DNA of 63,460 nt, the filler included. It is 8 parts of 8 records of this genome, joined end to end, with 100 filler letters (N's around TTAATTAATTAA, not from the genome) between each part and the next. Parts side by side here need not be neighbours in the genome. Positions count along the whole stretch, not along the records: positions 34,711 to 41,247 come from SRR7504441_3559; 7 more parts are not named here. The stretch is one strand, 5' to 3'. Both the position numbers and the translations under genes were made by a program. A model generated the notes under the pieces. That model searched no databases and had not been told where the DNA came from. It saw nothing but the letters and a program-made list of their open reading frames with translations. This document shows, one piece after another, positions 24,520-60,311 of this stretch (position 1 is the first letter of the stretch; every line of letters begins with the position of its first letter).

Positions 24520-24619
24520 NNNNNNNNNNNNNNNNNNNNNNNNNNNNNNNNNNNNNNNNNNNNTTAATTAATTAANNNNNNNNNNNNNNNNNNNNNNNNN
24601 NNNNNNNNNNNNNNNNNNN
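24520..24619. other. Artificial contig spacer (N44-TTAATTAATTAA-N44)
   Basis: Six-frame stop linker flanked by Ns. Identical spacers lie at 30066-30165, 34611-34710, 41248-41347, 49091-49190, 56032-56131 and 60152-60251. Confidence 0.98.
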
Positions 24620-25177: not shown

Positions 25178-28100
25178 ATGGCCGAGGAGGCGGCGGGCCA
25201 GCAGTGCGGCCCGGGCCGGGGGGCTGCTGGCCGAGCCCGCCGCAGGTCGGTGGACGCCGAGCAGCGCTTCGTCCAGCTCGAGCGTTCCCTCCGGGCCGCC
25301 CAGCGGGTCAACCAGCAGTCCCAGGCCTCTGCCCGCCCCGCCCGCGGCTCAACCGTCGGCGCAGGCCAAGCTCGACGCGCTCTCCAGCACCAATGTGGAG
25401 CTCTCTGCCGCCGCCGAGGTCCCCCCCCCGCGCCCTCCCGCGCCAGCCTCGCGGATCAGGCGCACTCGCTGCGGTGCTCGGAGCTCGAGCGAACCGTGGC
25501 CGATAGAGACGAACGGCTGGCGCTGGCCGAGGCGAGCCGGGCGGAGAGCAAACGCAAGGAGACCGAGGCAGTGGAGTCGGCCGGCGCGGTGCAAGCTGAG
25601 AACCGCCGGATGGTGCCGCGGGCGGGCTGGGTGGGTCGAGCCTGGGCAGGCCGGCGAGTTAGAGAGAGCATCAGGAAGGGTCGAGGAGGCCCGGGGCAAG
25701 GCGAGCGAGCTGGAGAGCCAACTCGACCAGATCACCGCGGCCCAGCTTCCCAACAAGGCGCGTGCGACGGCTTGGCGGCCGGGCGAGCGCTGCACAGGTG
25801 AGTCTGGACAAGATGCAGCAGCAACTCGCTGTGCTCGAGGCGGACAACAAGCGGCTATCCAGCCAGGCAAGCCCTCGGGGGCGTGCCGGTTTGACCCCGC
25901 GTGCAGCTGGGGGAGGCTAACAGCACGCTAGCAAAGCTCAGAGCAGACGCGGCTCAGAGCAGCACGACTGCCAAGGCTGCGGCCGAACTGAGCGCCGCAG
26001 AGGCTGGTGCGGCCGGCCTGGGGCCGGCGGGCGAGCGTCGGGGGGCAGCCGCAGCCAAGGCGGAGCTGGAGAGCGCCCGCAGCGCACTGAGCACTAAACA
26101 GGAGGAGCTGGCGGCATCGCTTTCTCAGCTGAGGACAGAGCGCGAGCAGAGGGCCGAGGCGGACGGCACGAGGGACCGGGCTCTCGAGGCCCAGACGGAG
26201 GTGGCTGAGATGGCTCAGCAGGCCGTCCGGGATAAGGAGAGCAAGATGCAGGAGCTCCACTCGGCGATGCAGACTGCGTCGATTGAGCGCGATGAGGCTG
26301 CCGGCAAGCTGGCGCAGGCGGAGCAGACGCACAGGCAGGCCGCGGAGACGATGGAGGCCAAGCATAAGTCGGAGCTCGACTCGCTGAAGGCGATCATTGC
26401 AGCCCAGGACGGGAGCACTGGACAGTTGGTGGCTGTTGCTCCGAGCGACGCGCTGGTGCCTGTCGAAAGCACAGCGAGCGGGTTCATGCCTGCCGGCCAG
26501 TCGATGAGCGACCTGTGCTGCCAGCTGGCCGAGGCCCGGCAGGAGCTGCTCAAGGAGAAGAGCCGAAGCGCCCAGCTCGAGCAATCGATGAAGTTCATTC
26601 TGGAGGAGATTGAGGCCAAAGCGCCTGCGATTCAGCAGCAGCGGAACGACTTTGACAACTTGGTCCGGAGCCACTCGCAGCTGGCCAGCCGGCTGGCCGA
26701 GAACGTGGACGAGAAGGCGGCACACCGGGCTGAGCTGGCTGCGCTATCTTCAAAAGTGGAGGAATTGAGTAGCTTTAACACGGCGCTCGAGAAGCAGGCG
26801 GGTGCGATGGCGCAGCAGCTGCACGACTGGATCCGATCCAACGAGCAGCCCGGCGAGCCGCAGCAGCTGGCGCTCCAGCTGCAGAAGAGCAACATGGCGC
26901 TCACTAGTAAGACTGCGCAGCTGGAGGCTCAGCTGGCACAGCAGCAGGCGAACAGGAAGACTGAGGCAGACCAAGCCCTTAAAGCCAAACTGGGCGAGGC
27001 ATTTGCCATGGGCGAGGCGCTCAAGGCGGATATGGACACGATGCGCGCCGAGGCCACCCGGATAGTCGGTCAGCGCGATCTGTACAAGGTGCTGTTGCAG
27101 CACGCTGAATCGAGGAGCGGCGAGGGCGGCGAGTTGGCTGAGCCGAGCGCCGCGCTGGAGGAATCGACGGCGGTGACGGCGCTGCAGACCGAGTTGAGTC
27201 AGCTCAAGGCGAGCCGGGCCACCGCGCAAGGCAAGCTGCAGGACGCGCTTGACAAGGCCAGGGCCGATTGCACAGAGCTACGGATCAATCTGACCAAGAG
27301 TCAATCGCAGTCGGAGTTCAGGGAAGAGCGGCACGCCATGCTGCTCAAGAACACAGATGCGATGCGCTCCGAGCTGCAGGCGCTTCGGGGCAAAAACATG
27401 GAGCACACCGGACTGCTGATGGAGCAACAGGCTGAGGTGGCCAAGGCTCTCCAGCTGATTGAGACGGAGCGGGCCAAGACTGCGGAGGTGAGCCAGCAGC
27501 TGCAGCGCATGACTGCTCAGAAGCTGCGGGCCGAGCGGAACGAGGCGGCGCTGGAGGCGCAGATCGGGGCTCTTTCACAGGAGAAGACAAGGCAAGCTCG
27601 GCTGGTGAAGGATTTGGAGGCGATTTTCAAAGACTTTGAGAAGACATGCGCCCTGCAGAAGAAGCATTCGGCTGCGGAGCTGACCAGGGCGCAGGGCGAG
27701 CTGGCGGCGCTCGAGCAGCAGCTGGAAAAGGCCGGGCAGAGCTCGCAGGAGAGCGAGGATAGGCTGAGGCATAAGCTGAGTGAGGCGAGGGCTGGGCTGG
27801 ATTCAGCAGAGGCCAAGCTGGTGGCCGAGGGCAACCAGAAGGATCAGCTCAAGGCTCAATTGGCCGAGGCCCAGACTCAGCTAGCAGACGCGCAGGAGCA
27901 GCTGGGACAGGCCCAGGTGAAGCTAGCTGCCAGTGACACAACTGGCGAAGGCAGCGAGTCGCAGCTGGCAATCCGATTGGGCGCTGTACAGACAGAGTTG
28001 ACTTCAGCCCAGCAGTTGGTCAAGCTGCGTGAAGACGAGGTGAGCCAGCTCAAGAGCATCGCGTCAGCCAACGAGCAAGCGTTGCTCAAAGCCCAACAAG

Positions 28101-30065
28101 AGCACACCGCCGCCGCCAGCAGCGCAGCCACCGAGACTGCCACGCTCAAGAAGACAGGCGGCGAGCTGGAGAGCCAACTGGCAGGCGTCAAGTCGGAACT
28201 TGCAACCAAGCAGAACGAGTGCGACGGGCTGCGGCTGGAGCTCAAGGAGCAGGTGGAGAGTTTTGATGCCGAGATCGCGATGCTCAAGGCGACCGATACT
28301 AGCCTCAAGCAGACGGCTAGTCAGTGCGAGGAGGAGGCCGAGGCTGCGCGAGCCGCGATGCGCGCAGCTGAGCTCCGCCGGGACGAGGTCGAGTCCAAGT
28401 ACGAGCGTGAGGTGAACAACCACGCACTCAAGATCTCGGAGGCGAGCGCGCTGCAAACTAAGCTGGACAAGGCACAGTTGGCGGCCCAGCAGGCCCAGCA
28501 GAAGCTCAAGGAGAATGAGCTGAAGATGCAGGAGCAGCAGGCGGCCCAGGTCACTAGCGCGGCCGGCCAGGCACGCGAGGTGAGCGAGGCGACCACCCGA
28601 CTCAAGCAGCTTGAATCACACAACGAGCTGCTGCATGCGCAGCTGGACTCGCGGCTGGAGAGTCTGCAAAAGAGCCAGCCGGGTCAGCCACAGGATGAGC
28701 AGGACACGGCGATGCAACAGGTGCTCCGGTTTGTCAGAAAAGAGAAGGAGGTGGCAGTCGCTCGCCTGGAGCTGGCGCAGCAGGACGCCGCCAGGCTGCG
28801 GCTCAAGAACGAGTCGATCAGGAAGCAGCTGGAAGAGGCTGGCCAGCAGCTGCAGAAGGAGATGAGCAGGAGCGAGTCGCAGCGGCGGACCCAGGCTGAG
28901 CTGCAGGTGGTGATGCAGCACGTTGCTGAACTGAGTGAACTCCGAGAGAAGAATGGCCAGTTGCAGCGCAAAGTGGAGCAGTTGGAGCAGGCGGCGGCGA
29001 CCAACATGGCCCAGCAGTCGGCTGATGCAGCCAGCAAGCTTGAGCAAGCAGTGGAGACGTCCAAGCAGGAGGCGGTGGCCGCACAGGCTGCAGCCAAGGC
29101 CAAAGAAGAGGAGGTGCAGAAGTGGAAGGACAGGCTGCGGGGCGAGCTGCAGAAGAAGAAGCAACTCGAGACCGCAAAGCAGGCAGAAATAGCGGCACTG
29201 CAAGCCGAAATGAAGACCAAGACTGAGGCGGTGGCAGCGGCACAGGCACGCGTGGAAGCAGCCGGTGCAGAGCAGAAAGGGCTGCAGGAGCAGCTCGAGG
29301 CAAGCCAAGAGTCGGGTAAGGAGGCCGAGACTAAATTTGCAAAGGCTAGGGGCACACTGGGCAAGATGAAAGCGTCAATAGATCGACTCAAGAAGGAAGT
29401 AGAGGAGAAGGACAAGGAGCTGCAGAAGGCTCAGGGTGCTGCTGGTGCCGCCAGCTCGCCCGAAGTGACTAGCAAACTGGCCACAGTCGAAGGCGAGCTC
29501 GCCTCAGAGAAGCAGGCCAAGGAAGGGCTCCGAAAGCAGCATGCCCAGCTTGTGCAACAGCACGAACAGCTGAGCGCGCGGGTAGCCGAGGCTCGCACCA
29601 TGGCCCAGTCTGGCGCCCAGCTGGCCGAGGCTCTCGCCGCCCTTGCAGGTACCGTGCCCTGCCTGCGTGCCTGACCAAAGTGCAGGGACTCCACCCGCAG
29701 AGCCGGCCGCGGAGCCTGCCAGCGCGCCTGCCGAGCCTGCCGCAGCCCCGCCTACCCCTCCGACCGGGCGTGGGCCGTTCCTGGCTGGCATGACTGTTGC
29801 GGCCAACCAGCAGGTACCCAGCAGGCTGTGGGCTGTCTGAGTGTGTCCTAGTCTCAGCCGGAGTTCGGTGCAGCCAAGCAGCTGCCAGTGCCGCAACCGA
29901 CCGAGACCGCAAAGCGGAGTGGCGAACAGGAGCCAGAGGTGCTTTCTGGGCTGTGTTGTTGCAGATTGGCTGATTCTGCTGCAGGGGTCAGCGGCCAAGA
30001 AGCCCAGGACAATGGCGCCACCAGCCCCCAAGCCTGCAGCAGGCAAGGGTGCAGCAGCAGGCAAG
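25178..30065 (+). CDS. TPR: Nuclear basket nucleoporin TPR/Mlp1/NUA homolog, 3' truncated
   Basis: Long coiled coil with TPR-family motifs ILEEIEAKAPAIQQQRNDFD, IVGQRDLYKVLL, ESKYEREVNNHA and QVLRFVRKEKEVAVARLELAQ. Several ~40-nt introns at the 5' end and after 29648. Confidence 0.85.
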
Positions 30066-30228
30066 NNNNNNNNNNNNNNNNNNNNNNNNNNNNNNNNNNN
30101 NNNNNNNNNTTAATTAATTAANNNNNNNNNNNNNNNNNNNNNNNNNNNNNNNNNNNNNNNNNNNNCACTAAGTTTAGCAGTGAACGTTCGACCAAACAAA
30201 CCCAAACGGCAAAGCACTACGCTCGTGA

Positions 30229-34610: not shown

Positions 34611-34731
34611 NNNNNNNNNNNNNNNNNNNNNNNNNNNNNNNNNNNNNNNNNNNNTTAATTAATTAANNNNNNNNNNNNNNNNNNNNNNNNNNNNNNNNNN
34701 NNNNNNNNNNTTACCCCATGCAATGTTAGGG

Positions 34732-36771
34732 TTAGAACGGACGGCCATGCATGTGATATCCATACTCGTACATGTACATTGGAGGCGCAGGTGGAGGCGG
34801 CGGTGGAGGCGGCGGTGGAGGCATGGAAGGATTTCGGTCGTTGGGCTGGTATCGGTTATTCGGCTGATATCGGTCGTGAAACTGTGAGAGACTTGATGGT
34901 GCTTGCCAAGGTGGGTGATATGCGCTGTATCCTCCGTATTGGTACTGTGGAGCCGCCACGTTTGCCGGCTGTGACGACAGCGGTTGATGCCGCTTTGCAC
35001 TCGACTCGGCCCACTGCGACTGCTGTCGTTTCCGGAGGTTCTCTCGGGCAATCATTCGCTCTCTATCAGGGTGCACGTTTGAAATCGGCTCACCATACCA
35101 GGTTTTGCCGCAGTCTGCAGGTGCGGATGCACTCAAGATGTCGCGGGAACGAGCAGGGATCTCAGCTGCTGCCATGTCCTGTTGGCCTTCCTGTCGCCAA
35201 GCCCTGGCGAACGAACGGTCCGCAGTCACACAGCTCAGCTGGCCAGACCCGGTGGGGCTTGGCCCTAGCTCAAGTGATGGCATCGGCTCGGCCAGCCAGT
35301 CTCGAGTGCAGCGAGCGTGCTTGTCCAGGCTGGATATCTTGATCTTCAGCGCCTTCTCCATCGCCTCCCTCTCGCCCCGCGATGTGCACGACAGGAAGCA
35401 TCTTTTGATATACGCTTCCAGTGCCAACGGGTAGGACCCCGCGTTGCTGCAGGGCACTGGTGGCGCAGTGCTGCTCTCAGCACCAGCCTCACAGCTCTCT
35501 CGGGCCGCCGGCGCAGGCTCTCTGACCTCGGGCTCTTGATTTGCAGCCTGCCAGAAGCGGTCCGGGTTCCTGAGGGCGTTGACCACGTGCTGCGGGACCG
35601 CACCCACGTCCTGCGGGGTGGGGCACGAGTTTTCGGTTGGGTCGATCACCCTACCGTGACCATGGTCGACGTTCGGTTCCGGGCCATTCAAGCCTTTATG
35701 CTTGGCAATGAGGTGGTTCGCAAGATCCTGGTGCTTCTTGAATTTCCGGCCGGCCTTGCAGCCACCAACCCTGCTCCAAAGACACTCGCATCCATCCGAT
35801 TCCATTGCACTTCGCTGAGCCTCAACTAGTACTTTACTGGCTCTCCGTTGTTGGGTGAATTGCCGCCGTTCCTCAGCCCGGGCGCGCTGCTGCTCCCGAA
35901 CAAGCTGGCGCCTCTCCTCCTCGGCTGCCGCGGCCCTCAGCGAGTGAAGGATCCCGCGGACCTTGGTAGGCCCCAAGCCTTTCAGGCTTTCGAGCCCAGC
36001 CGCGAGCTGACTGGCCTCGAATGGCCGGAGCTTTCTGCGGGAAACGATGGCGTCGGCCACCGCAGGCCCGACGCCGTTGAGCGACTGTGTGAGCCAGCGC
36101 TGACTCATGGTGTTGAGCAGCTTTGCCTGGTGTAACAGGCAGACTTCTAGTGACGTCCCTGGCAGCGACTGATCCAGCCGGGCCTCTGGCAGCGATACCG
36201 GCGCCAGATCGGCCAGCCGGAGCCAGCCCTGCTCGGCTGTAGGCTGGGCCGGCTCCAGGATAACCAGCCCGTCATCGTCGCTGTCAGAATCCAAAACGAT
36301 TACGTCTGTCATCGATTGCCGCTCGTCAGTCGTCAGCCGGTACAGCGCGCCGTCCTTTAGACTGACCGAGAGCTCGCCCGGAGCAGCAGCCAGCAGCCGG
36401 AGTGTGAGCTCGCAGACTCGCACCCGGTCCGCCGGCAGCTGCTCGCTGCAGTTGGGGCAGAGGGCGGGCTCGCCGCGCGACGCGTGCTCGCGCCTGGTCA
36501 GCAGGTACGTGGAAAGCTCGAAGCAAGTCTGGTGCGCGCAGTCGGCGCCGCGGCAGGGCACCCGGAGTCGGGCGCGAGTGTACCGGTCTGTGAGTGCCAG
36601 GTCCTCCGATTCGACCTCGAGCTCCTCCTCTGACCCGGCCTCCCCGCGGGCCAAGAACGCTGCCAGCCCCTCGCCGAAACCCAGACGCGGTACGAGGGCC
36701 GTCGCGGAGTTGGGGCATCCAGCGCCCTTGTCCCCCGGGTTCTTGCGGGCAGCCTGCTTGGTCCGCGGCAT
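34732..36771 (-). CDS. SP-RING (zf-MIZ) SUMO-E3-like protein with H3-tail-like N-terminus, SIM, HhH, C2H2 finger and LENG8/Thp3-like motif
   Basis: MPRTKQAARKNPGDK; RLRVPCRGADCAHQTCFE...CPNC; DVIVLDSDSDDD; LNGVGPAVADAIVSRR and LKGLGPTK; CLWSRVGGC...HLIAKH; LEAYIKRCF...DWLAEPMP; Pro/Tyr-rich tail. Single long ORF. Confidence 0.75.
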   Translation of the reverse strand: MPRTKQAARKNPGDKGAGCPNSATALVPRLGFGEGLAAFLARGEAGSEEELEVESEDLALTDRYTRARLRVPCRGADCAHQTCFELSTYLLTRREHASRGEPALCPNCSEQLPADRVRVCELTLRLLAAAPGELSVSLKDGALYRLTTDERQSMTDVIVLDSDSDDDGLVILEPAQPTAEQGWLRLADLAPVSLPEARLDQSLPGTSLEVCLLHQAKLLNTMSQRWLTQSLNGVGPAVADAIVSRRKLRPFEASQLAAGLESLKGLGPTKVRGILHSLRAAAAEEERRQLVREQQRARAEERRQFTQQRRASKVLVEAQRSAMESDGCECLWSRVGGCKAGRKFKKHQDLANHLIAKHKGLNGPEPNVDHGHGRVIDPTENSCPTPQDVGAVPQHVVNALRNPDRFWQAANQEPEVREPAPAARESCEAGAESSTAPPVPCSNAGSYPLALEAYIKRCFLSCTSRGEREAMEKALKIKISSLDKHARCTRDWLAEPMPSLELGPSPTGSGQLSCVTADRSFARAWRQEGQQDMAAAEIPARSRDILSASAPADCGKTWYGEPISNVHPDRERMIARENLRKRQQSQWAESSAKRHQPLSSQPANVAAPQYQYGGYSAYHPPWQAPSSLSQFHDRYQPNNRYQPNDRNPSMPPPPPPPPPPPAPPMYMYEYGYHMHGRPF

Positions 36772-36831
36772 TAGAACCAAGGCGGCTACATACCCTGCTC
36801 CATTTGATAATTATAACGGAATTTCAGACAG

Positions 36832-37774
36832 ATGGAGCTCGATGAGGGGCGGAGCCAGGACGGGATCGCCGGCCAGGAGCACCTTCGCGCGCTCCAGCGG
36901 CTCCAGCTGCTCCCAGACGACGTGCTGGTGGTGCGCGGCCCGGGAGGCCAGGCCCCGACCTGTCGGGCAGGCGTCGCTCGGACCCACCAGCCCGGCCGCC
37001 TGGCCGCTCGCCGTCGCCTGCCACGTGCTGTTGCACGGCCACAGCCCGCCGGCCAGACTGCCCGAGCAGCTCGAGGCCCACCGGGTGCGCCGGCCGGCGT
37101 GCGGGCCTCACCCGGCCGCGCAGTGGGACTTGGACCCGGCCGGGGGCGGGATGGAGGGACTGGCCAGGCCCAGGGTGCTCGGCACACAGCTGCCGTTCCC
37201 GGCGCTGCCGCCCGGGGCCCGGGGGTGCCGGATGGTGTACCTCGTGCGCGAGCCCAAGGAGAACCTGGCGGCCGCCTGGGACGGGCAGCCGCTGCAGCCG
37301 TTCGTGGACAGCTGGTGCCTGGGCAACGGCCTCGGCCAGCCGGGGGGCGGGTTCGGGCCGCACCTGCACAGCTACCTGGTCGGGCTGCACAGGGGGCACA
37401 GGGTGCACTGGTTCAGCCTGGAACGCTTCGAGATTGACCCGACCGCCGAGCTGACGGAGCTCGCTAGGTTCCTGTGGGGTGCCAATCCGGCGGGGCTGGC
37501 GCCAGAGCGGATCCCGGCGGCCCACTCCGCTGTGCAGGCGGTGCGGGCGGCTGAAGGGGAGTGGCTGGGCGCGCGGGGGCTGCTCAGCCCGGCGCAGTCG
37601 GCGCAAGTGGACAGAAGCTTCCAAGGGCTGTTCTCATTGTATCATGGAAAGCTGTTTTCTGACAAGTACGGGACTGCCGGGATATTCGGGGCCGTGTATC
37701 CTAGCAAGGACAAGCACAAGTTGATGAGCATCCCCACAGGTAGGCTAGCGGCGGCTGCCGATGTAAATTTATGA
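36832..37774 (+). CDS. Sulfotransferase-fold protein, catalytic motifs degenerate
   Basis: LLPDDVLVV|ASLGP (intron), RPRVLGTQLPF and RMVYLVREPKEN align with Sulfotransfer_1 motifs DDV..YPKSGT, PR..KTHLP and IYV.RNPKD. Confidence 0.6.
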
Positions 37775-37905
37775 TTCGCAATTGATTTTAACTTGAATTC
37801 GAGTAATTCAAAAGGCTCTTCGACGCTTAGGGCGTCGTTGAAGGCCTATATTCGGAGTGCGCCCTATTGGCGCTCGGACACCCGAATATGCTCCGGTGCG
37901 CTCCG

Positions 37906-38922
37906 TCACGGCTTGGCGGCGCATTCCATCAGCCGGCCGTCCTCGAGCATCACGACCATCTCCGGCAGCCTAAGCGCCCCGAGGTGGGTACCCAATGCAG
38001 TCTCCGGCAGCCCCATCCCGCGCTCCTCATACCGCACCCCGGCTGCGTAGTCCACGCACATCACCTTGGCCGCCGGCCCCAGCAGCTCGTTCGGCTCGTT
38101 TTCCGGAAACATGTCGGCGCCGGTCGGGTGGAAACCGTCGGGGTGGATATCGTCAACCGCCGGGCTGATCTCGCCCATGAACCGACGCCAAAAGTGGCCG
38201 ATCACCACCAGCTTACCGTCGGCCGGCTGGTAGCTCTCCCACCACTTGGCCCTCTCGATCGTCCGCATCTTGCCGCCAGCAAAGAACGGCTCGGCCGCCT
38301 TCTGCTCGAGCCCCGAAGTGAGCACCTTTACCGGATTCTCGTTCTGGTGCGCCAAGTCGATCTGCTCCACGTCCGTTACGCCCTCCAACCGCGCCTCGAT
38401 CGCTGCCTCGGACTGTGTGAACGCCTCGAGCACGGTGCAGTCGAGCGCCTGAACTGCGGCCAGAGCCTCGGGCGTGACGCATGCGTGGACAACGAGCAGG
38501 TCGTCGCGCTCGAGCACCAACGGCAGGCTCGCAAAGAACTCGAGCACTTCGTCGCTGAATTGCTGGTCGGCCAAAACCTGGAACGACACCGAGTGCTTGT
38601 CCTTCCTAATCACCTCGGGCTCGCCGAAGAACCAGTGGTTCCCATGCTTGCGGTCGGCCTTCAGGATGTTGAGCTCGTGGTTGCCCAGCACGCACTGGGC
38701 GTTCCCCTGCTGCATCAGATGCCGGACCAGCCTGACCACCCCCGGCGAGTCCGGGCCCCGGTCCACCAGGTCTCCCACGAAGACCAGCTTGCGCCCGTCG
38801 GGGTGGCAACCGTTCCCGTCATAGCCCATGCGGTCGAGCAGCTTGCACAGGGTTCCGCACTCGCCGTGCACGTCCCCGATGATGTCCACCGGCCCCTCAA
38901 ACAGCCGCTGGACCAATCGCAT
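37906..38922 (-). CDS. Calcineurin-like metallophosphoesterase (ApaH/PrpE-like), intronless
   Basis: Motifs GDVHG, GDLVDRG, GNHE, VHA and GH in a single 338-aa ORF. Confidence 0.85.
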   Translation of the reverse strand: MRLVQRLFEGPVDIIGDVHGECGTLCKLLDRMGYDGNGCHPDGRKLVFVGDLVDRGPDSPGVVRLVRHLMQQGNAQCVLGNHELNILKADRKHGNHWFFGEPEVIRKDKHSVSFQVLADQQFSDEVLEFFASLPLVLERDDLLVVHACVTPEALAAVQALDCTVLEAFTQSEAAIEARLEGVTDVEQIDLAHQNENPVKVLTSGLEQKAAEPFFAGGKMRTIERAKWWESYQPADGKLVVIGHFWRRFMGEISPAVDDIHPDGFHPTGADMFPENEPNELLGPAAKVMCVDYAAGVRYEERGMGLPETALGTHLGALRLPEMVVMLEDGRLMECAAKP

Positions 38923-39013
38923 GGCTGTCCAGATCGAAGTAACGGCAGCTCGAGCACTGGCAGATCGACGAGTTTACAAACGGTAGATCTAGCCGGTGTT
39001 GACACCGGGCGGC

Positions 39014-40187
39014 ATGGGGATGGAGGCCCGCAGGCGTGCCGACTGGGAGGCCGAGGTGCAGGACAGCTAGGAGCTCCAGCTGTTCAAGCCGCTGGCCGCC
39101 TGGAAGGCCAGCTACGAGCCGCCCGCGGCCCCAGACTCGATAGAAGCCAAGATCAAGGCCGGTATGCTGGACAAGGCCAGGGAGCTGGCCCAGCAGGCGC
39201 TGGTGCACCAGATACTCGAGCTGCTCTCGGCGCTCCTCTCCAATCTGCAGCAAGAGCTCAGCGACAACCTCGAACCAGCTCGCGGCCCGTCCGAAGCCGA
39301 TCTTACCTCAACAGCCGGACCAGGCGACGCCCTCAGAGACACCCAGGCGCTCAAGCACGCCATTGTCGTGGTGTGCGCTGGGCCCGGCCCGGCGGACCGC
39401 CGGTGCGGCAGGTGAATGCGCTGAACGCAATCTGCCTCGCGTTCCGCTTTTCGCGGCACCAGCCCAGCAAGTTTGAACATCTGCGCGGCTGTGCGGTCAG
39501 CCGAATCGCTGAGCAGCTTTGCCTGGCCCAGCAGCATGCGCGCAACGAACTCCAACGGCAGACCAGCAGCGCGACGGTTGATCGGATTGCGCTAGCCATC
39601 AAGGCAATTGCGTGCCCTGCCGGGCTCCGATCCGCGGCCAGGCAGTGCTTCAAGGCAAAGCTGACACACTGCAGCGGCTGATGGGGGAGGCGCCCGTGTT
39701 TTCCCGGATGGCGCGGGTGGGTCGGGAGACTGTTGGGGCGATGCTGGCCAAATTGATTGAAGCCCAGCTCAAGAGACATGCAGGCAAGCTAGTAGAGCAG
39801 CTCCGGGACGAGGCGCCGCCCCTGCCGAGCCGTTCGAGCCGAGCTGCAGGTTGTGGCGGTGGTGCGCGACGCTGAGAGTCAGCTGGGGCTCGATCTGGGC
39901 GCCAGCGAGCCAAGCTCAATGGCCACGGTGGGCCGCGCGGTGTACACGCAAGCACTGACTCGGGACCGTGGCAGGCCATCGAGAGAATCGATCAACGGAC
40001 GGTGGCGGCCTACAACAGCTTGGACCAGGCAGTGGCCGAGCAGCTGGCCCAAGTCACCGAGTTCTTTGAGAGCATCCTGAACGGCAATCCGGATGAGGCA
40101 GTTGTGCAGAGCCAGGCGAATCTCATAACAACACCTGAAGGCCGCAACCCTGGGGTCGCTGGCGCAAGCTCGAGGCAATGCTGCTAA
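39014..40187 (+). CDS. Hypothetical helical protein, multi-exon
   Basis: Consecutive coding-like frames (ELQLFKPLAAWK..., MLDKARELAQQALVHQILELL..., VAAYNSLDQAVAEQL...) linked by short introns. Confidence 0.5.
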
Positions 40188-40228
40188 TTAATGCGTGTAC
40201 ATGCTCTATTCATAAAATTCATATAAAT

Positions 40229-40876
40229 TCATATAGCTCCGTAATTTGGTAGCAAATTCCGCGTGGCGAGCGGAGCCATATCGCCTATAGTCGACACGGC
40301 GCTGTGCGCCCCCGGCTCGTACGGCATCACCCCGCGCTCCGCCGCGCTCCGCCCGTCCCCGTTCACGTGCACAGCAATGCTGAGCCCTGAAATCAGCTTC
40401 CTGCCAGCCGGGCCGTACTCGCTCCAAATTCGGTTGCACATGGCCAGAGCGACGCGCTCCCACTCCGCCGAGAGCGGCAGCGTCGGCGTTGGGCGCAGCG
40501 CCGTGTCCAGGATGATGCTGTGCGCCGAGAGCTGGTACTGTATGCAGTTGTCGTCCCCCTGCGCGAACGGACAGTGGTCTTCTCCCGGGCGGTAGCGCCA
40601 CCTTACGTAAACGTCCAAGGTCTTGTTCTCCTGTCTAGTGCTGTTGATCTGGAGCAGCTGAAACTCGAAATCCACCGTCGGCGCCGGATCGGGAGCGGAC
40701 TGTTGGGTGGCGAGCACCGCGACCAGCGCCAGGCTGGCGCCGGCGATGAATGCGAGCAGCTGGCTCCCTCTAGACACGGTCGGCGGGACAATTAGGCGTC
40801 CGTGGCCCGAGTGGTGGAGCTGCGTGCTGTGCTCGGGTGTGAGCCACTTCGCTGGCTCCTCGCCCTTCCTGGACAT
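40229..40876 (-). CDS. Hypothetical single-pass (type II) membrane or secreted protein
   Basis: Intronless ORF from MSRKGEE with the hydrophobic segment LLAFIAGASLALVAVLA, then a globular region with N-glycosylation sequons (NST, NKT). Confidence 0.6.
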   Translation of the reverse strand: MSRKGEEPAKWLTPEHSTQLHHSGHGRLIVPPTVSRGSQLLAFIAGASLALVAVLATQQSAPDPAPTVDFEFQLLQINSTRQENKTLDVYVRWRYRPGEDHCPFAQGDDNCIQYQLSAHSIILDTALRPTPTLPLSAEWERVALAMCNRIWSEYGPAGRKLISGLSIAVHVNGDGRSAAERGVMPYEPGAHSAVSTIGDMAPLATRNLLPNYGAI

Positions 40877-40942
40877 GGCCGCGCCCAGAAGCTGAAGCCC
40901 CAGATCCGGCCAACCGTTGCCGTTACAGGTGCCGTTTGTGCT

Positions 40943-41247
40943 ATGCCCGTCTACCGGTCGTCCTGGGCCCAGCCGGTGCTGGCCAGCCGGACGCCGTTCC
41001 TGGCCAACCCGTACTGGGCGCACAAGGTCGCCCGAGACGAGCAGCGGGCCAAAATCACCCCGGCTGACGCCTGCGACCGCGGGCTGCGCGACGCCCGCCG
41101 GCTGCTTGAGGCCTGCCAGACTGTCAATGGCGACGCGATGCGCCCGCCCGAGCCGTACCGGGCGGCGGCCGCCGCAGTGGCGGCCGCGACCAAGAGGGAC
41201 ACTGAGGCCGCAGCCGAGGAAGAGGCGCTGATCTGCTGCGCGAAGCT
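40943..41247 (+). CDS. 5' part of a hypothetical protein, truncated
   Basis: ATG at 40943 with an open frame to the gap (MPVYRSSWAQP...). Confidence 0.45.
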
Positions 41248-41347
41248 NNNNNNNNNNNNNNNNNNNNNNNNNNNNNNNNNNNNNNNNNNNNTTAATTAAT
41301 TAANNNNNNNNNNNNNNNNNNNNNNNNNNNNNNNNNNNNNNNNNNNN

Positions 41348-43979
41348 ACGCCTGGATAGGCACCGCAGCTCTCTCGTCGTTGGCTATTGGAAACATGGCT
41401 GCTTGAGCTTGCACATCCCCTACCCTATCCCCTATGGCTGCTTGAGTTTGCATATCCCCTGCTGAGACAATCATTTGGCAGGCTGGCAACGCAAGCTGAG
41501 CCGTGCTGTTGCTGCCACTGAGTGAGGGCAAGCAGTCTGAAGTTAAAACATGCCGCCGCCTGGGGCGCGAGGCTTGAATGTTATCCAGAGGGCTCACCAT
41601 TGTGCCATCTTGTGCATCTGGCGTAGCTAGATTATCTGGAGACTGATAAGGGATCAGTTCGCAGTGCAGCACGCCTTCTGAACTCCTAGCTGTCTCCCTG
41701 GCAGCTTCGCGTCTCACGCGAGCAGGCAAGGTCTCGGACGCAAACAGTTGAATGTGCTTGAACCAGCCGAGCCGCGTCAGAACCCGCAGCACATTCGCGT
41801 CCACAGCGTAGTCGTTCCGCTTCATTTGATAGAGCATCAGACATGCAATGGTCTTGTCGCTGATGCCTGGGCTCTCGATCAGCCACGCTCGCACTTGATC
41901 ATCTGGCCAGTTGTTGAGCTGCTCGAGCGAGGTCTCTCCAAACTTGTCATGCGCCCGCTGGAGCAGCAGCATGATCCGCTTGGCCTTGTTGTGGAAGTAT
42001 GGCCCGTGACAAATGCACGTCTCCACGTCTTCCTGCCGGGCCTGGCGCATACGATTCCAATCAGGCTCGCCGGAGGCAGCGCCGCCAAAGCTGCTCAAAA
42101 GATTCGAATATCCAACAGAAGACCAGCTGTTCCGAGTGTTCTGGGCGCAAATCAGCCCGACCAGCGTCCCAAGGATCGAGGTCTTCCATTCCAGATTGAT
42201 GAAAGGGAAATCTCCGTACGGTGACTCGAGCTTGCTGGAAAGCTGCTCAAAGTGGTGCCAGAACGTCTGGTTGCTAATGGGCTTGACCAGGTCCCCATAG
42301 AACAGGTGAGGATTCACGCGTGGCCGTGGCTGAGAGGGCACGCGTTGCATCATCGCCGGGATCGACGGACAGCGCGGCATTGTTTGGAACGAGCCAGCTG
42401 GGTGGGCCGACCGTTGGCCTCCGGTCCGAGCAGGCTTGGGCTTGATCAAAAGCTGCTTGAGTTGGGCCTGCTCGTGGTCGTGCCGGACGCAGTAGGCGCA
42501 GACCACGTGCTGGGCGTCGCATTTGAGATGGCTGTGCGTGTTGCAGTGGTCGCACTGGATCCAGCTCTGGTCGCCAACATCCGGAGACCAGATCTCAAAA
42601 CAGACCTGGCACATGCGCTCGTCCAGAAACTCGCCGATCGATATGTCCAGCCCGGACACCTTGAGCGCCCTCAGCCAGCGCTTATCCCGCTTGAGCTGAG
42701 CGGCTGCCTGTGCGTACTTGGACCTGGCTGTGTCCAGCTGCTCAGCTGCCTCGCCCTGCACGAATGCCTTGGGCTCCACTGGGTCGGGCTGCGGCTCATC
42801 GGGGGATTGCGGCATCGGCAGCACACTAAACGGCAGGCCGGTCGCATTGAAATTCCGGCCCGGGGTGACGACGAACTTAGCCTTGCGGCCTTGCATCTCG
42901 ACCGCTATCTTGAGAGATCCGTCCGCCGCCCGCTCGACTGGATCCCCAATCTTCTCCCGGCGGCTGGCGCAGACCGGGCAGTCATCCAGCCGGTCCGGGT
43001 TCAGGCGCTGCCACTGCTCGGCGCAGTGCTGGTGCCTGTGTGTGTTGCAGTGCGGGCATTCTATCCAGAGCAAGTCGTACGCGTCCTTGTCGTGCGGCGA
43101 CCAGAGCTTGGAGCATACCTGGCACATGTTCTGCTCGATGAACTGGCCGACCGACTGGCTGGCGTCCACTCGGATCGCCTTGAGCGGCTCCCTGTCCAGC
43201 CTGAACTTGCCGATCCGTTCGCACTCGGCAACAAACTCCTTGGGGCTCTGCTCAATCTCTAGGTCATCGCGCACTATCACCACCGCCCCGCCCTGCTCGA
43301 TCCTGGCCCAGGCGTGCAGCTCGGCCTGCAGCGCCGCTATCCCGACCGTCACCTTGATCGTGCCCTGGCTGCTCCAGCTCCCGCCTTGAGGCTTGGCCTG
43401 TCGCTTCTTGGGTCTAGAGCTGGCCAGATCGGCCCCAAACGCCGCCTTGCGCTCGGCCTGCAGAGCCCACGGCCGCCCGGCGGCTCCGGCGGCGCTGCGC
43501 TTGGGCCGGCACAGCGCGGACTGCTGGCCGCCGGCTATCGGCGCCCCGAGGGCCGACTGCTTCCCTCCGGCCATCGGGATCTTGCCGGCCGCCGCGAGGG
43601 GCGGGTCGGCGCGCCGGCTCTTTCGGCCGGCCGGCGTCGGGTCGGGGGCCTTCCTCTTGGCCGGTGGGGCCGGGGCGCGGGGCGCGGGGTCTTGCGTATC
43701 TGGCGCGCAGGTGCACTGGTGGTCGGCCGGGACCACTCGCTGGCAGTCGAGGCATTTGATCTTGCCCGCTTTGGGCGTCGCCTGGACCTGCGGGCGCCCC
43801 CGTGCCGACTTGCCCGCCCGCGCGGCCGGGGTGCGGACCGGCGGGCTGCTGGCGCTCTTTTCAGTCACACTTGCTTCTCGGGTCCGGGGCGCGTCGGCAG
43901 CCCGTCGCCTGGTCACCCGGGGCGTGCAGGCCGACACTTCGGAGATGGCATCGCTTCGCGCTCGTCGAGCCCTCGGCAT
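41348..43979 (-). CDS. 2x PHD-like fingers + HhH-GPD DNA glycosylase (DEMETER/ROS1/EndoIII-like), 3' truncated
   Basis: TLVGLICAQNT, DWNRMRQA, KAKRI, SLEQL, SPGISDKTIACLML and VDANVLRVLTRLGW. C4HC3 fingers at 42969-43124 and 42489-42611. Met at 43979 is preferred because the upstream ATG overlaps PSMB7. Confidence 0.8.
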
Positions 43980-44103
43980 CTCGCGGGCCGCGCTCTGCGG
44001 TGGCAAGACCTCAGCAGAGGCGGTGGCGCCAAGCCGGTACCGATCCGTTGGAGGAGCAACGGAAAGCTGAGCTTCGAGTGTGTCAAGCTCGGGCTCTCCA
44101 GAG

Positions 44104-45313
44104 ATGGCCGCCGAGGAACTCGCAGGCATTCAGGGCGGTTTCAGCTTCGAGAACTACGCTAGGTGTCGCGCTGAGCTGAGCCCGGGCCCGGCGGGCTGAT
44201 CGATCTGCGGCAGGAACAACTTTATCCAGGAGCAGGGCGCCAAGATCCCCAAGTTCCGCAAAACAGGAACCACCATCGTCGGCGTCATCTACAAGGTGCC
44301 CCCCAGGCGCGACCGCCCGCGCTGACCGCTGTCCCCAGGATGGCGTCGTGCTTGGTGCCGACACCCGCGCTACCGGCGGTTCGACGGTCGGCGCCGAACC
44401 AGGCGGCGGGGCTTGAGGCCGCGGGCAGGTCTGCGATAAGAACTGCGAGAAGATTCACTACCTGGCGCCCAACATCTACTGCTGCGGGGCCGGCACCGCC
44501 GCCGACACCGAGAAGACCACAGGTGCCCGGGCGGCTGCTCGGGTTGCCAGCCGGGGTGCAGACATGATCAGCGGGCAACTCTACCTGCACAGGATGGCGA
44601 GCAACCGGCAGTCGCGGGTGACCACCGCCCGGAAGATGCTGAGCGAGATGCTCTTCCGGTCTGCCCCCGGCCGGCGCGGCTCTGAGTCTGGCCGCAGCTA
44701 CCAAGGCCACGTGAGTGCTGCGCTGGTCCTGGGGGGTGTCGACGTCAACGGGCCTCACATCCACACTGTGTACCCGCACGGAAGTACTGACGCACTGCCG
44801 TACGCGACGATGGGGTCGGGCTCGCTGGCCGCAATGTCAGTGTTCGAGGCGCGGTACAAGGACGACATGACGGTCCGCCTCTAGCGAGCTTGGGCGGCCT
44901 TGTGATCGATGGTTTCTTCAGAGGGACGAGGCGGTGCTTCTAGTCCGGGATGCGATCAGGGCGGGGATCTTCAACGATTTAGGTTCGGGTGGGAACGTTG
45001 ATGTTGTAGTCATCGCTAAGGTGACAGACCATTCAGCTGGCACTGACTGGTTGTGCGTACAACAGAACCAACCAGCAGAGATCCTGCGCAACTACGAGCC
45101 GCTGGACGTCGAGCCGGAAAGGCGACCAGTCAAGTTTGCTCCCGGCGCTACAGGTGCAGCCCTGGGGACAATACTCTAATTGGCTAGGCAAATGGCCTGC
45201 TATTGTGTCGCAAGACGCCTCGATCTAACAGTTTTGTGGCAGCGATACTCTCTGAAACTGTGGAGGTGTTTGAGGGATCGGTAGCCGATATCGGCGAGGG
45301 GATGGACATCTAG
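44104..45313 (+). CDS. PSMB7: 20S proteasome subunit beta type-2 (beta2/Pup1/PSMB7)
   Basis: Spliced GGFSFENY...[25 protein letters not shown]...DKNCEKIHY...[11 protein letters not shown]...[15 protein letters not shown]...[10 protein letters not shown]...[14 protein letters not shown]. Eight GT-AG introns. Confidence 0.95.
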
Positions 45314-49090: not shown

Positions 49091-49190
49091 NNNNNNNNNN
49101 NNNNNNNNNNNNNNNNNNNNNNNNNNNNNNNNNNTTAATTAATTAANNNNNNNNNNNNNNNNNNNNNNNNNNNNNNNNNNNNNNNNNNNN

Positions 49191-56031: not shown

Positions 56032-56206
56032 NNNNNNNNNNNNNNNNNNNNNNNNNNNNNNNNNNNNNNNNNNNNTTAATTAATTAANNNNNNNNNNNNN
56101 NNNNNNNNNNNNNNNNNNNNNNNNNNNNNNNCGAGGGTAAAGGCGGACATAGCTAGTCAGTAACCCTACTGCTACATGTACACGAGCTCCGAAATTTTAA
56201 ATATTT

Positions 56207-59200
56207 TTATGGTAAATCTTTGACCTTATTTTCAAACCAATCTATATCCAAGGGCTTGGTAGTGACTCCTTGCATTCCAGCTTTGAGGCAGACCGCCTCC
56301 GTGTCGGCGTCAACACTTGCAGTGAGCCCATAAATGGGCGTGATGTGCATGCGACTTTGCCTCGCCTCCCACGCCCTAAACTCAGTGACCACATCTGCAC
56401 CAGAAATTGCCCCCATATTGAAGTCGCATAAAACTAACTTATACTGGCACTGTTTCAGAGCCTTGAGCCCTAAAACACGGTACAACTCAGAATTAAAACA
56501 CAAGAATGAGCCACACCTTCCTCTGCCCCACAACCCTCATCCACTTTGAAACCTTCGGCACGAAGGAGCATTGCAGTCAACTTGAGCACAGTAAGGGTGT
56601 CGTCAATGATCAAGATGCGCTCGATTTTGCATGTCTCAGGTACTACCTCGGGTACTACCTCGGCTTCTGCCTTGGGTGTTGCATCGGTTTCTGTCTCGGC
56701 TTCAGTCTCGGATGCTGCCTCGGGTGCTGCCTCAACTTCTGCCTTGTGTGGATTGTGATGTGGTGCAACTGGTCCATCAGTGTGAGCTGGAATCAAGGGA
56801 AAGCTGAACCAAAAGACAGAACCAGGGCCGTTAGGATTATCATGCATCCCACACTGGCCACCAATAGATTCACACTGTGCCTTGACCACAAAGAGCCCAA
56901 GGCCAGAGCTCTGAGCATTCGACACAAACGGCTCCCATATCTTGGCTTGTTGACCTGGTGGCACGCCCTCTCCAGTGTCTGTGACTGAACATAGCACGAA
57001 TTGGTGGCGGTCCAAGGTCACAGTCAGGTCAATATTTCCATCAGATGTGTGCCTGCATGCATTGCTCAATAGATTAACAAGACTTCGTACAACAACACTT
57101 CGGTTGCACACGATTTGATCAGATTTCAACAGGCTATCGTCGACTTTAGATGACATGACTGTTGAAGGGGTGGCTGCGTGCGATGTGCATGCCAGTGCTT
57201 CGGAGGTTAGTTGTGCCAGAGATACCACGTCTTCACATCGCACTTTGACATCACCCTTGTCCAGGTACCGCGCTGCGAGCATCATCGTGTCCAGGAAATT
57301 GAATGCAACCTTCAGGGCCGAATCCATTTGGTCAAGTATTGAAGTGGATGGGAGCTGACGCTGAGAAACTAAGCTCCGTAAAACTGAGGACCCGCTCTTC
57401 AGTGCAGCAATAGGTGTCCTCAAATCATGCGCGGTTGAATAGACAACCTGATGATAGGCTGCAGCTTGTTTGCGTAAATCAGCAGCTCGCGCCGCGTGAA
57501 GCCCCACACTTTTGAGCAGTAAAACAGCTCCACCCAACAAGGTTGCTCCGCCAGAAATGAAGAGGTCGAAAGCCATGTTCGGGGAACAAAGTGTCACGAG
57601 AGCATTAAGGGAGAGCGTGACAGCCAGATATTCGGATGCTGATGTGCAGGCCGCCGCTGCAAAGAAAGGATTTCCAACGCAAACAGGAATAAACTCCATC
57701 TGAGCAATGTAGCCCAAAGCACCCAGAGCGGCACGGGACGGGAGGAGAAGGAAGCTTGCTAGCCGCACAAACATCATATAACCCTTGTAGCTTGGGGGCA
57801 TTAGCAGTAGCACCACAAAAAATGCGAATGGGATGGGCACAGTGCCCCAGTCGTCTCGCAGTATGCGGTAAATCACATTCGTTGGGAAGTACACGACTCC
57901 GCCCCACCACATTGCCAAAGTCGACAGTTGCTGATGATCAGACATAGCACTCGCTTGATGAACTCGACCAAGCTTAGCACCAGTCTGGGTGGATCTGATC
58001 AAACAGTAAGCAGAGCCAAGAACAAACATAGCCCCAAGCACCAGCCTTGCAGTGGCTTGATGCTCCTGCAATGTGCGCCAGAGCTCTCCAGGTCTCTGCC
58101 GTTCGTGAAGGATTAGTGCCAATGCTGCTACTGGGACCGAAGCGACCGTTAATGCTATGTAGAGCCCAGTTGAGTGCTGGGGCGCAGGCTGGCCATCCGG
58201 ATCTGGCTCAGACCGCTTGCATAGCCACACGCACTTGCTGACCATCGCGATTGCGCCGGCAAAGGTTGCTGAGACAGCAGTGATTGTTAAAAGATTACCT
58301 GCAGGGTTTGCGTGCGACCAGAACAGCACCACTGCGTTGAGCGAGAGCGTGACGGTCAGGTACTCCGATGCTGATGTGCAAACTGCTGCAGCAAAAACAG
58401 GACCCCCGATACAAGCAGGAATGAGGTCCACCTGAGACACATAGCCCAGCACACCTAGAGCAGTACGGCACGGGAGAAGAACCAGACTTGCTAGCCGCAG
58501 GAGCAAAACGTAAGTCTTGTAGCTCGGGCTTGTTATGAGCACAGCTATCCAAAATGCGACAGTGGCAGCAGCACCGATCCAGTCGCCTTGCAGTACGTGG
58601 TATGTGCTGCTCACTGGCAAGACAATCAGCGCCAGCCACCACACAACTGTAACAATAAACTGTTCGTGCCAGGCTTGGCGTTCTACCAGATGTGCCGCCG
58701 GGCCAGCCAGCGACTCCAGTACCATGTCTAGCAGCTGGAACCGGATGTTGCATACGAATATCACCAAGCCGACCGCGCACATACCGATGGAGTACGCAAT
58801 AGGCGACATCCGGGAGGGTCTGCGCCCATCCTTCTCTAGTGCCCGCAGCTGTCTGGTCACAGTCACGATTTTGGCATCAATCTGCGCACGCTGGAGCTCG
58901 AGATCGCGCAGCTGGGCCTCGAGCTGATCACTGGAGGGGCAGCTAGCCTCGAAGACCGATCGGTCCATCAGGGCTGCTTCGTCGTCAAAGCTGCCGGTCC
59001 CGGTTTGAACAGCCGACACCTCCAGTAAAATCTCGTGATCGGCCTGGATTCTTCGGACCATCCCACGCCAGTGCTCCAGGATTTGCTCGAGCTGCGGGTC
59101 ATCCGCAACTGCCGAGTGCTCCGTCTCTTCCTGGCGAGGCTTGAAGCCAACTGCGGCTACCACGACGATCCGCCCGGTCACGTTGCACGGCAAACCCGCC

Positions 59201-59754
59201 CTCGAACGATCAGGCGCCGCAAGGCACTCGTCCCGGCCGCCTGGCGCGCACCAGCGGAACCCTGGATCCAGCATCTGGACCGCTGGACGCACGTCGGTTC
59301 GGAGTCCAGCCCGCTCCAGCAGCTCCGGGTCCGTCTGTCTCATCAGCTTCTCCACGATCTGACCGGTCGTGTTGTGTGCGTGCTGTGACCTCCAGTGCGG
59401 CAGGTTCGCCTGGTTGCACCGGCCAGGCTGCGGTATCAGGCTCGCGGACCACCACCACCTGTCAGCGTACTCGCCCGTTCCAGGGGGCACCAGCTGCTTT
59501 AGCGCTTCGCAGGCGGCCCCCGGTTCGGCGGCTGGGTCCGGGGTAGCGAAGGTGATCTGCACTATCCCGCTCCTGTGAGTGCCCTGCCCAGCCGACGAGC
59601 CGAGCAGCTGATGGGTCGCCGAACCGGTGTACTCGTCCCCCTGCTGGCCGCCCGTGGCACGGCCCAGAACCGACAAGGCGCCCACACACAGCACCCACGA
59701 GCAGCAGCCCCTCCGAAGACCACCCATCGCACTTACCTGGCGGGCATTCACCAT
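56207..59754 (-). CDS. Multi-TM hybrid histidine kinase with receiver domain
   Basis: H-box HDLRTP, N-box NLLSNA, DTGEG and GLGL. Receiver IDD...LCDFNM...GLTA...TKP is split by an intron near 56470-56516. The start could be 59754 or 59727. Confidence 0.9.
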
Positions 59755-60151: not shown

Positions 60152-60311
60152 NNNNNNNNNNNNNNNNNNNNNNNNNNNNNNNNNNNNNNNNNNNNTTAAT
60201 TAATTAANNNNNNNNNNNNNNNNNNNNNNNNNNNNNNNNNNNNNNNNNNNNAGGTCCAGCGCCGGGCCGGTGTCCCCACTCATCATCATCCACTCAAACG
60301 GCTGCACCGTC

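Follow-up and report, generated by a model that had tools for sequence, protein, structure and literature searches.

The window analyzed here, a stretch of 63,460 nucleotides, consists of contigs from one metagenome bin that were concatenated with linkers of the form N44-TTAATTAATTAA-N44, which place stops in all frames. One of these contigs (positions 34711-41247; 6537 bp; GC 0.648) carries on its minus strand a single-exon open reading frame (ORF) of 679 amino acids (P0001), which spans 34732..36771 including the stop codon and is homologous to a related protein, P0172. As judged from its sequence, the product is a PIAS/Siz-type SP-RING protein with a SUMO-interaction-type motif (SIM) and probable DNA-binding motifs. 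The ORF starts with MPRTKQAARKNPGDK, and its first 15 codons (36727..36771, minus strand) specify M-PRTKQAARKNPGDK, a sequence that resembles the tail of histone H3 and fits the iM-Z-R-X-K rule for H3-tail mimics (H3TMs). The gene is thereby a new candidate H3TM, found as one gene in one bin, on a member of what appears to be an undescribed, PINIT-less SP-RING family.

Past the H3-like tail, with all features on the minus strand, the first recognizable element of the protein is a block at residues 27-43 (36643..36693) that is conserved in the family alignment as V-x-x-L-x-F...A-L..RG. Residues 32-44 are helical in an AlphaFold2 model of residues 1-210 built from eight sequences, which is of low confidence (mean predicted local distance difference test score, 51.3; predicted template modeling score, 0.42) and in which residues 5-28, as well as half of the model overall, score below 50. 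The SP-RING, or zf-MIZ, domain occupies residues 64-110 (36442..36582) and is assigned from Pfam, the alignment, and a PDB profile. The Pfam match to zf-MIZ (PF02891) covers residues 65-110, and its score is 31.4 bits (E 1.6e-7) for the whole protein, just under the cut-off of 33.5, and 34.0 bits, above the cut-off, for residues 1-180; the domain is matched in 14 of 14 aligned family members. When a profile of eight members is compared with the PDB, it retrieves PIAS2 (4fo9) at E 1.3e-14, PIAS3 at 4.7e-13, SIZ2 at 1.8e-12, and SIZ1 at 5e-9, bearing out the SP-RING assignment made in the original prediction. The four zinc ligands, C78, H80, C105, and C108, align with C-x-H...C-P-x-C of PIAS2/3 and are invariant in the eight-sequence alignment; with 14 sequences, H80, C105, and C108 remain invariant, and conservation of C78 is at least 90%.

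An SP-CTD-like continuation at approximately residues 111-150 (36322..36441) is suggested by the family profile, which aligns with PIAS2 residues 201-307, past the SP-RING of PIAS2 and PIAS3. The acidic SIM that had been noted earlier, DVIVLDSDSDDDGLVILE at residues 156-173 (36253..36306), is recognized both as a motif and in the family alignment. It has two hydrophobic cores around an Asp/Ser run, is conserved across the family with the consensus V-I-D-L...DDDDDD-x-I-I-x-E, and is located as the SIM of PIAS2 is. Next comes a family motif seen in the alignment and without an assigned role, W-L-x-L-x-D-L-x-x-V-x-L-P, at residues 183-199 (36175..36225); in the form W/x-L-x-L-x-D/S-L-x-x-V/x-x-L-P, it recurs between the SIM and the helix-hairpin-helix (HhH) region of P0172, P0003, and P0005.

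The more C-terminal motifs that had been read from the sequence fared less evenly. Two HhH-like motifs, G-V-G-P and G-L-G-P, lie at residues 219-279 (35935..36117). HHH_3 is matched in 2 of the 14 family members, with a best E of 1.8e-5, whereas all HhH matches in the protein itself are weak and fall below the Pfam cut-offs (HHH, E 0.0055; HHH_3, 0.013; HHH_5, 0.024). Likewise, a C2H2-like finger at residues 328-360 (35692..35790) is discernible in the alignment as the pattern C330-x7-C338-x14-H353-x4-H358, and a homolog in UniRef, from Aureoumbra, bears the name "C2H2-type domain-containing protein"; the Pfam signal is weak, with one family member matching zf-C2H2_2 at E 0.0062. The LENG8/Thp3-like segment proposed at residues 446-500 (35272..35436) was recovered by no tool: there was no Pfam match at E<=1, SAC3/GANP included, no usable Atlas match to residues 425-520, and only unrelated weak matches when residues 430-520 were compared with the PDB by phmmer. 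Neither a PINIT nor a SAP domain is matched in the protein by Pfam at E<=1. As only 63 residues precede the SP-RING here, and approximately 35 in the relatives, there is no room for a PINIT domain, and the HhH-like motifs stand downstream in place of SAP.

Searching with residues 1-420 by HMMER returned at least 150 proteins at E<=1e-3, 13 of them at <=1e-10, and the top matches share the entire N-terminal architecture. The closest full-length match, P0172 (424 amino acids), is 45% identical over residues 24-365 (E 5e-82) without large gaps. The sole relative with an organism name comes from the pelagophyte Aureoumbra lagunensis, and the public runs in which parts of the locus occur are of marine origin. 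The idea of a dinoflagellate retrogene, prompted by a loose resemblance of the bases before the ATG to a relic spliced leader, was dropped, because the only named relative is a pelagophyte and no other dinoflagellate sign was seen. Taken from these alignments, the layout of the family is a short N-terminal helix, an SP-RING, an SP-CTD-like part, an acidic SIM, two HhH-like motifs, and one or more C2H2-like fingers, without PINIT or SAP. A literature search found no description of a family with an SP-RING at the extreme N terminus, a SIM, HhH motifs, and fingers, and we apparently deal with undescribed PIAS/Siz-like proteins of the SUMO-ligase type that are algal (pelagophyte-type) in origin. 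In the longer members P0003/P0153, P0010, and P0015, a C-x(n)-C...H-x4-H-G-G finger is repeated two to six times and the protein ends in a long low-complexity tail (poly-T, poly-G, or poly-N). One JGI copy of the family is annotated as a "ComE-like DNA-binding protein."

When the N terminus is compared with the H3 reference MARTKQTARKSTGGK, as in PDB entries, 9 of the 14 residues that follow the initiator methionine are identical and in register with it (R2, T3, K4, Q5, A7, R8, K9, G12, and K14), and both the position and the count given in the original prediction are correct. The five mismatches are A1P, T6A, S10N, T11P, and G13D. A phmmer search of 177,635 distinct PDB sequences with the first 30 residues gave four matches, all of them histone H3, at weak E values of 0.49-4.3. 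The likeness ends at residue 15; the alignments to H3 in the PDB reach approximately residue 22, with one mutant Cys as the only later identity. No match to the Pfam Histone family (PF00125) was found in the protein at E<=1, in agreement with the earlier statement that there is no histone fold.

Within the window, the match stands far beyond chance. A six-frame scan of its 86,461 stop-free 14-mers against H3 1-14 gave 19 with six matches, none with seven or eight, and one with nine, so that the only 14-mer with at least 7/14 is the N terminus of this ORF. Given the amino acid composition of the window's long ORFs, the probability of at least 9/14 is 2.1e-8 per register, and approximately 6e-7 events would be expected for the roughly 30 protein N termini in the window. 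All five basic residues of H3 1-14 are retained, as against four of the other nine (P = 0.063), which is no more than suggestive. All three H3 lysines are matched even though lysine is scarce, at 2.6% in the window's long ORFs and 3.4% in the SP-RING protein.

Translation probably begins at the first methionine (M1), as no other workable ATG is available and codon usage of a coding type begins there. M1 is the only ATG model that retains the conserved N terminus: an in-frame TAA lies 13 codons upstream, and no further Met occurs in frame until residue 153, past the SP-RING. Over the 430 nt preceding M1 on the minus strand, there are only two ATGs, both inside a short out-of-frame upstream ORF (uORF), and none of 18 models combining an upstream ATG with a GT/GC-AG intron reaches the conserved block in frame. 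The codon-usage score of the N-terminal extension is +3.0 bits in frame, compared with -9.1 and -4.8 out of frame, and resembles that of the next 23 codons. The upstream 60 nt, an AT-rich spacer (36772..36831; GC 0.42) between M1 and a divergent start codon, scores negative in all frames. A start elsewhere, which the original prediction regarded as fatal to its claim, is thus not supported by the frame, with the 5' end itself being uncovered by reads. In four public runs (three RNA, one DNA), contigs cover 34823-35147, 35470-35827, and 36027-36411 at 95-99% identity, together with two further pieces of approximately 34 nt and low likeness. Three studies have yielded metatranscriptome contigs that are 95-99% identical to parts of the ORF body, at most a faint sign of expression.

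In the 14-sequence alignment, the conserved family block begins at residue 27 of the protein and contains an invariant Leu30. The SP-RING gene places 29 residues before this leucine, of which residues 1-23 align with nothing and constitute an N-terminal extension (36703..36771, minus strand) with no counterpart in the aligned relatives and with a GC content at third codon positions (GC3) of 0.87. A search with residues 1-44 at E<=10 found no homologous protein, and only six candidates shared any word with the query. Directly after the extension, codon 24 (36700..36702, minus strand) is ACG (Thr24), six residues before Leu30 in the alignment and one transition away from ATG, and it may be a lost ancestral start codon.

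The surroundings of the gene can be described briefly. Across the spacer, the divergent neighbor (36832-37774, plus strand) starts with the ATG at 36832 and is sulfotransferase-like on the basis of a weak Sulfotransfer_1 match (E 7.5e-4) from approximately 37160. Its protein-like N terminus (MELDEGRSQ...LLPDDVLVV) lies in a different frame from that match, which suggests an intron or a frameshift between approximately 36930 and 37150. Exact look-up of the SP-RING protein and three neighbor proteins in a protein collection gave no identical entry. Further along the same contig, 37906-38922 (minus strand) encodes a calcineurin-like metallophosphoesterase (E 1.3e-11). The linkers lie at 24520-24619, 30066-30165, 34611-34710, 41248-41347, 49091-49190, 56032-56131, and 60152-60251; contigs separated by a linker are not true neighbors, and any ORF that enters one is an artefact. 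On the contig that follows in the window, 41348-44129 (minus strand) encodes a protein of at least 927 amino acids, its N terminus cut by the linker, with a weak match to an HhH-GPD glycosylase (E 1.5e-4) and, upstream, a pair of PHD-like fingers rich in Cys and His, and this protein may have a DEMETER/ROS1-style architecture. Elsewhere in the window are a TPR/MLP1-like protein of the nuclear-basket type (26210-29674, plus strand; E 9.4e-9; 35.8 bits against a cut-off of 36.0) and a large HATPase_c protein (56470-59754, minus strand; E 9.2e-17). The first contig (1-24519) has a GC content of 0.517, compared with 0.54-0.65 elsewhere, and very long minus-strand ORFs of 3094, 1041, 717, and 666 amino acids with EF-hand and Big_5 matches; it may represent a part of the genome with low GC or may have been binned wrongly. 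For Pelagomonas calceolata, a mean GC content of 63% with troughs of 52% has been reported (PMC9481584), which is a parallel only and not an identification.

When the candidate tail is placed beside known systems, its closest counterparts are the H3TMs of Chen et al. 2021 (PMC8166343), among them VRK1, PCLAF/PAF15, BCL11A/B, SALL, and FOG. According to that report, the rule for such N termini is iM-Z-R-X-K with Z being G, A, S, T, C, P, or V, and Met removal is permitted before Pro. The candidate shares this start, as well as a host protein of the nuclear DNA/chromatin type, the class in which human H3TMs are reported to be enriched (PMC8166343). Its tip, predicted to be flexible, combines a Pro1 as in VRK1 (PRVK) with the R-T-K of PAF15 (VRTK) and of H3 itself (ARTK). 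Both precedents have known readers: the P-R-V-K tip of VRK1, when trimethylated at K4, is bound by the PHD of PHF2 approximately threefold more tightly than H3K4me3 (PMC8166343), and the PHD of UHRF1 accommodates V-R-T-K of PAF15 in the manner of H3 A-R-T-K (PMC7060239). Unmethylated H3TM tips are described as binding NuRD, and conservation of the tip has been seen in the SALL, BCL11, FOG, and MEF2 families (PMC8166343). The differences are equally clear. In our reading of the motifs quoted there, known H3TMs copy essentially the first four or five residues of H3, whereas here 9/14 are matched, including the A-R-K "K9" site, G12, and K14; the host is a protist protein of the SUMO-ligase type; and the tip is absent from the aligned relatives. 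Relative to histone H3, the shared part is tail residues 2-5, 7-9, 12, and 14 in register, while the histone fold is missing, the likeness stops at residue 15, and 5/14 positions differ.

A similar comparison can be made on the ligase side. With PIAS/Siz proteins of known structure (PIAS2, 4fo9; PIAS3, 4mvt; Siz1, 3i2d/5jne; Siz2, 6u75), the family shares the C-H-C-C zinc site of the SP-RING, an SP-CTD-like stretch, and a downstream acidic SIM. It differs from them in lacking PINIT and SAP, in the position of the SP-RING approximately 60 residues from the N terminus (approximately 35 in the relatives), and in having HhH-like and C2H2-like motifs downstream, and its E3 activity is predicted only. 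Plant SIZ1 is an SP-RING ligase whose PHD finger reads H3K4me3 (PMC6954211; PMC8064691), a precedent for physical contact between a ligase of the PIAS type and the H3 tip with its K4 state. The wiring is reversed, in that SIZ1 reads the tip and the candidate would itself present one. Plant PIAL1/PIAL2 are PIAS-like E3/E4 ligases that act in transcriptional silencing and retain PINIT (PMC8064691). They are linked to chromatin silencing, share with the present family an SP-RING, SIMs, and the lack of SAP, and differ from it in keeping PINIT and in having no H3-like tip. A literature search, which was not exhaustive, found no fusion of an H3-tail mimic to a SUMO/PIAS ligase.

The reading that we prefer, and which we hold tentatively and would not yet call probable, is that of "H3 N-terminal mimicry," that is, a young and translated tail on an SP-RING protein. 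In this scheme, the ancestral start, a Met 6-13 residues before Leu30, would have been replaced by ACG, with initiation then taking place at the ATG 23 codons upstream. Removal of the initiator Met would leave a mature P-R-T-K end in the register of H3 A-R-T-K. The tail could have been copied from the 5' end of an H3 gene and have since diverged at 5/14 positions, or it could have arisen de novo; the extent of the likeness, as far as the A-R-K "K9" site, G12, and K14, points tentatively to an origin from an H3 5' end and not to convergence. It is conceivable that such a tail tethers a SUMO ligase on DNA to the proteins by which the H3 tip is held or modified, such as PHD, WD40, or chromodomain readers and K4/K9 writers. 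Alternatively, enzymes acting on the H3 tip might regulate the ligase through its tail, in which case the ligase would be a substrate of K4/K9 enzymes. Both the docking and the regulation are roles that we only infer.

Several observations weigh against this preferred reading. The H3-like tail is present in 0/13 aligned relatives. Ten of these have their start Met 6-13 residues before Leu30, and the remaining three (P0168, P0010, and P0011) have longer predicted N-terminal ends that are unrelated to H3, with an internal Met at -6 or -7. Of 172 other retrieved proteins, which comprise matches, members of clusters, fragments, and many generic proteins with zf-MIZ or HhH, none starts with M-Z-R-x-K, and at the N terminus no more than 4/14 residues are identical to H3 1-14. 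The conservation in orthologs by which the original prediction would be judged was accordingly not found. As the nearest relatives are just 45-51% identical, true orthologs are not among the compared set, and no close ortholog was found by profile searches, in metagenome contigs (searched with the single protein and with a three-sequence alignment), or in viral contigs. The H3 phosphorylation sites T6, S10, and T11 are not retained, and A1 is replaced by Pro. In addition, the out-of-frame uORF (ATG GAG CAG GGT ATG TAG, encoding MEQGM*; 36786..36803, minus strand) precedes M1 by 14 nt where the divergent ATGs are only 60 nt apart, and in the four public runs no read or contig covers the start and none bridges 36412-36872. 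Over approximately 1e7 protein N termini, a rough estimate for a scan of approximately 250,000 windows, approximately 0.2 chance matches are expected, and a scan-wide fluke is therefore possible on statistics alone. Most likely, the tail is of recent, lineage-specific origin and does not belong to the family as a whole. It is a serious, if doubtful, possibility that it is also without chromatin meaning: the extension would be translated, its likeness to H3 would be due to chance or be functionally neutral, and it would be a short basic disordered segment, perhaps serving nuclear import, that has been coding since ATG became ACG. The confinement of the tail to one gene, the ACG at the position of the relatives' Met, the five departures from an otherwise near-invariant H3 tip, three phosphorylation sites included, and a scan-wide expectation that is not negligible all agree with this alternative. 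This alternative must contend with the low probability per register and the lack of another 14-mer in the window even at 7/14, as well as with the matching of three of three H3 lysines where lysine is rare. It also sits uneasily with the coding-type codon usage of the extension, unlike that of the AT-rich spacer, which a recently recruited 5' untranslated region would not show, and with a host of the chromatin/DNA type, in which H3TMs are enriched in humans (PMC8166343).

Two further explanations concern the gene model and the assembly. It appears unlikely that the start has been misplaced, with the H3-like codons untranslated and a short, family-type N terminus made from a non-AUG start near codon 24 or from a distant upstream exon. 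The position of Met in the relatives and the ACG at -6 would fit such a model, as would the uORF, the closeness of the divergent ATGs, and the uncovered start region, whereas the absence of an in-frame ATG between M1 and M153, the failure of all 18 ATG and intron models to join in frame, the in-frame TAA 13 codons upstream, and the onset at M1 of both the frame-specific coding signal and a GC3 of 0.87 argue for M1. Far less probable still is a chimera of assembly or binning, in which the 5' end of a true H3 gene has been joined to the SP-RING gene. Such an event is suggested by the make-up of the window from short concatenated contigs of a metagenome bin and by sparse coverage in the public runs, with no contig bridging 36412-36872. 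Against it, 5/14 residues differ from canonical H3, no histone fold appears in the frames across 36600-36900, no second H3-like 14-mer is present in the window, neither the reading frame nor the codon usage is interrupted over residues 15-30, and the divergent neighbor is sulfotransferase-like and not a histone.

A bolder proposal, which takes up the coupling inferred in the original prediction, is that a SUMO E3 ligase of a protist acquired approximately the first 15 residues of H3 as its own N terminus. Writers and readers of H3K4/K9 would then act on the ligase itself, and the code of the histone tail would be tied directly to SUMOylation at the local DNA. We consider it improbable at this stage, and the weight of the finding is limited, as it concerns one gene in one metagenome bin with a tail that is not conserved. 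Mimicry of H3 at the N terminus has been described for a few dozen animal proteins, with in vitro support, and among the described H3TMs that were compared, as far as their quoted motifs go, there is no SUMO ligase and none that copies the tail to K14. If true, the proposal would make this the first SUMO ligase with a mimic of the histone tail, opposite in its wiring to plant SIZ1. Independent of the tail question, the host family appears to be an undescribed SUMO E3-type variant in marine algae. Should the tail be made and used, it would represent a natural fusion of a histone "handle" and a SUMO-conjugating enzyme in a marine alga, and would connect histone marks with SUMOylation in a simple way that can be tested.

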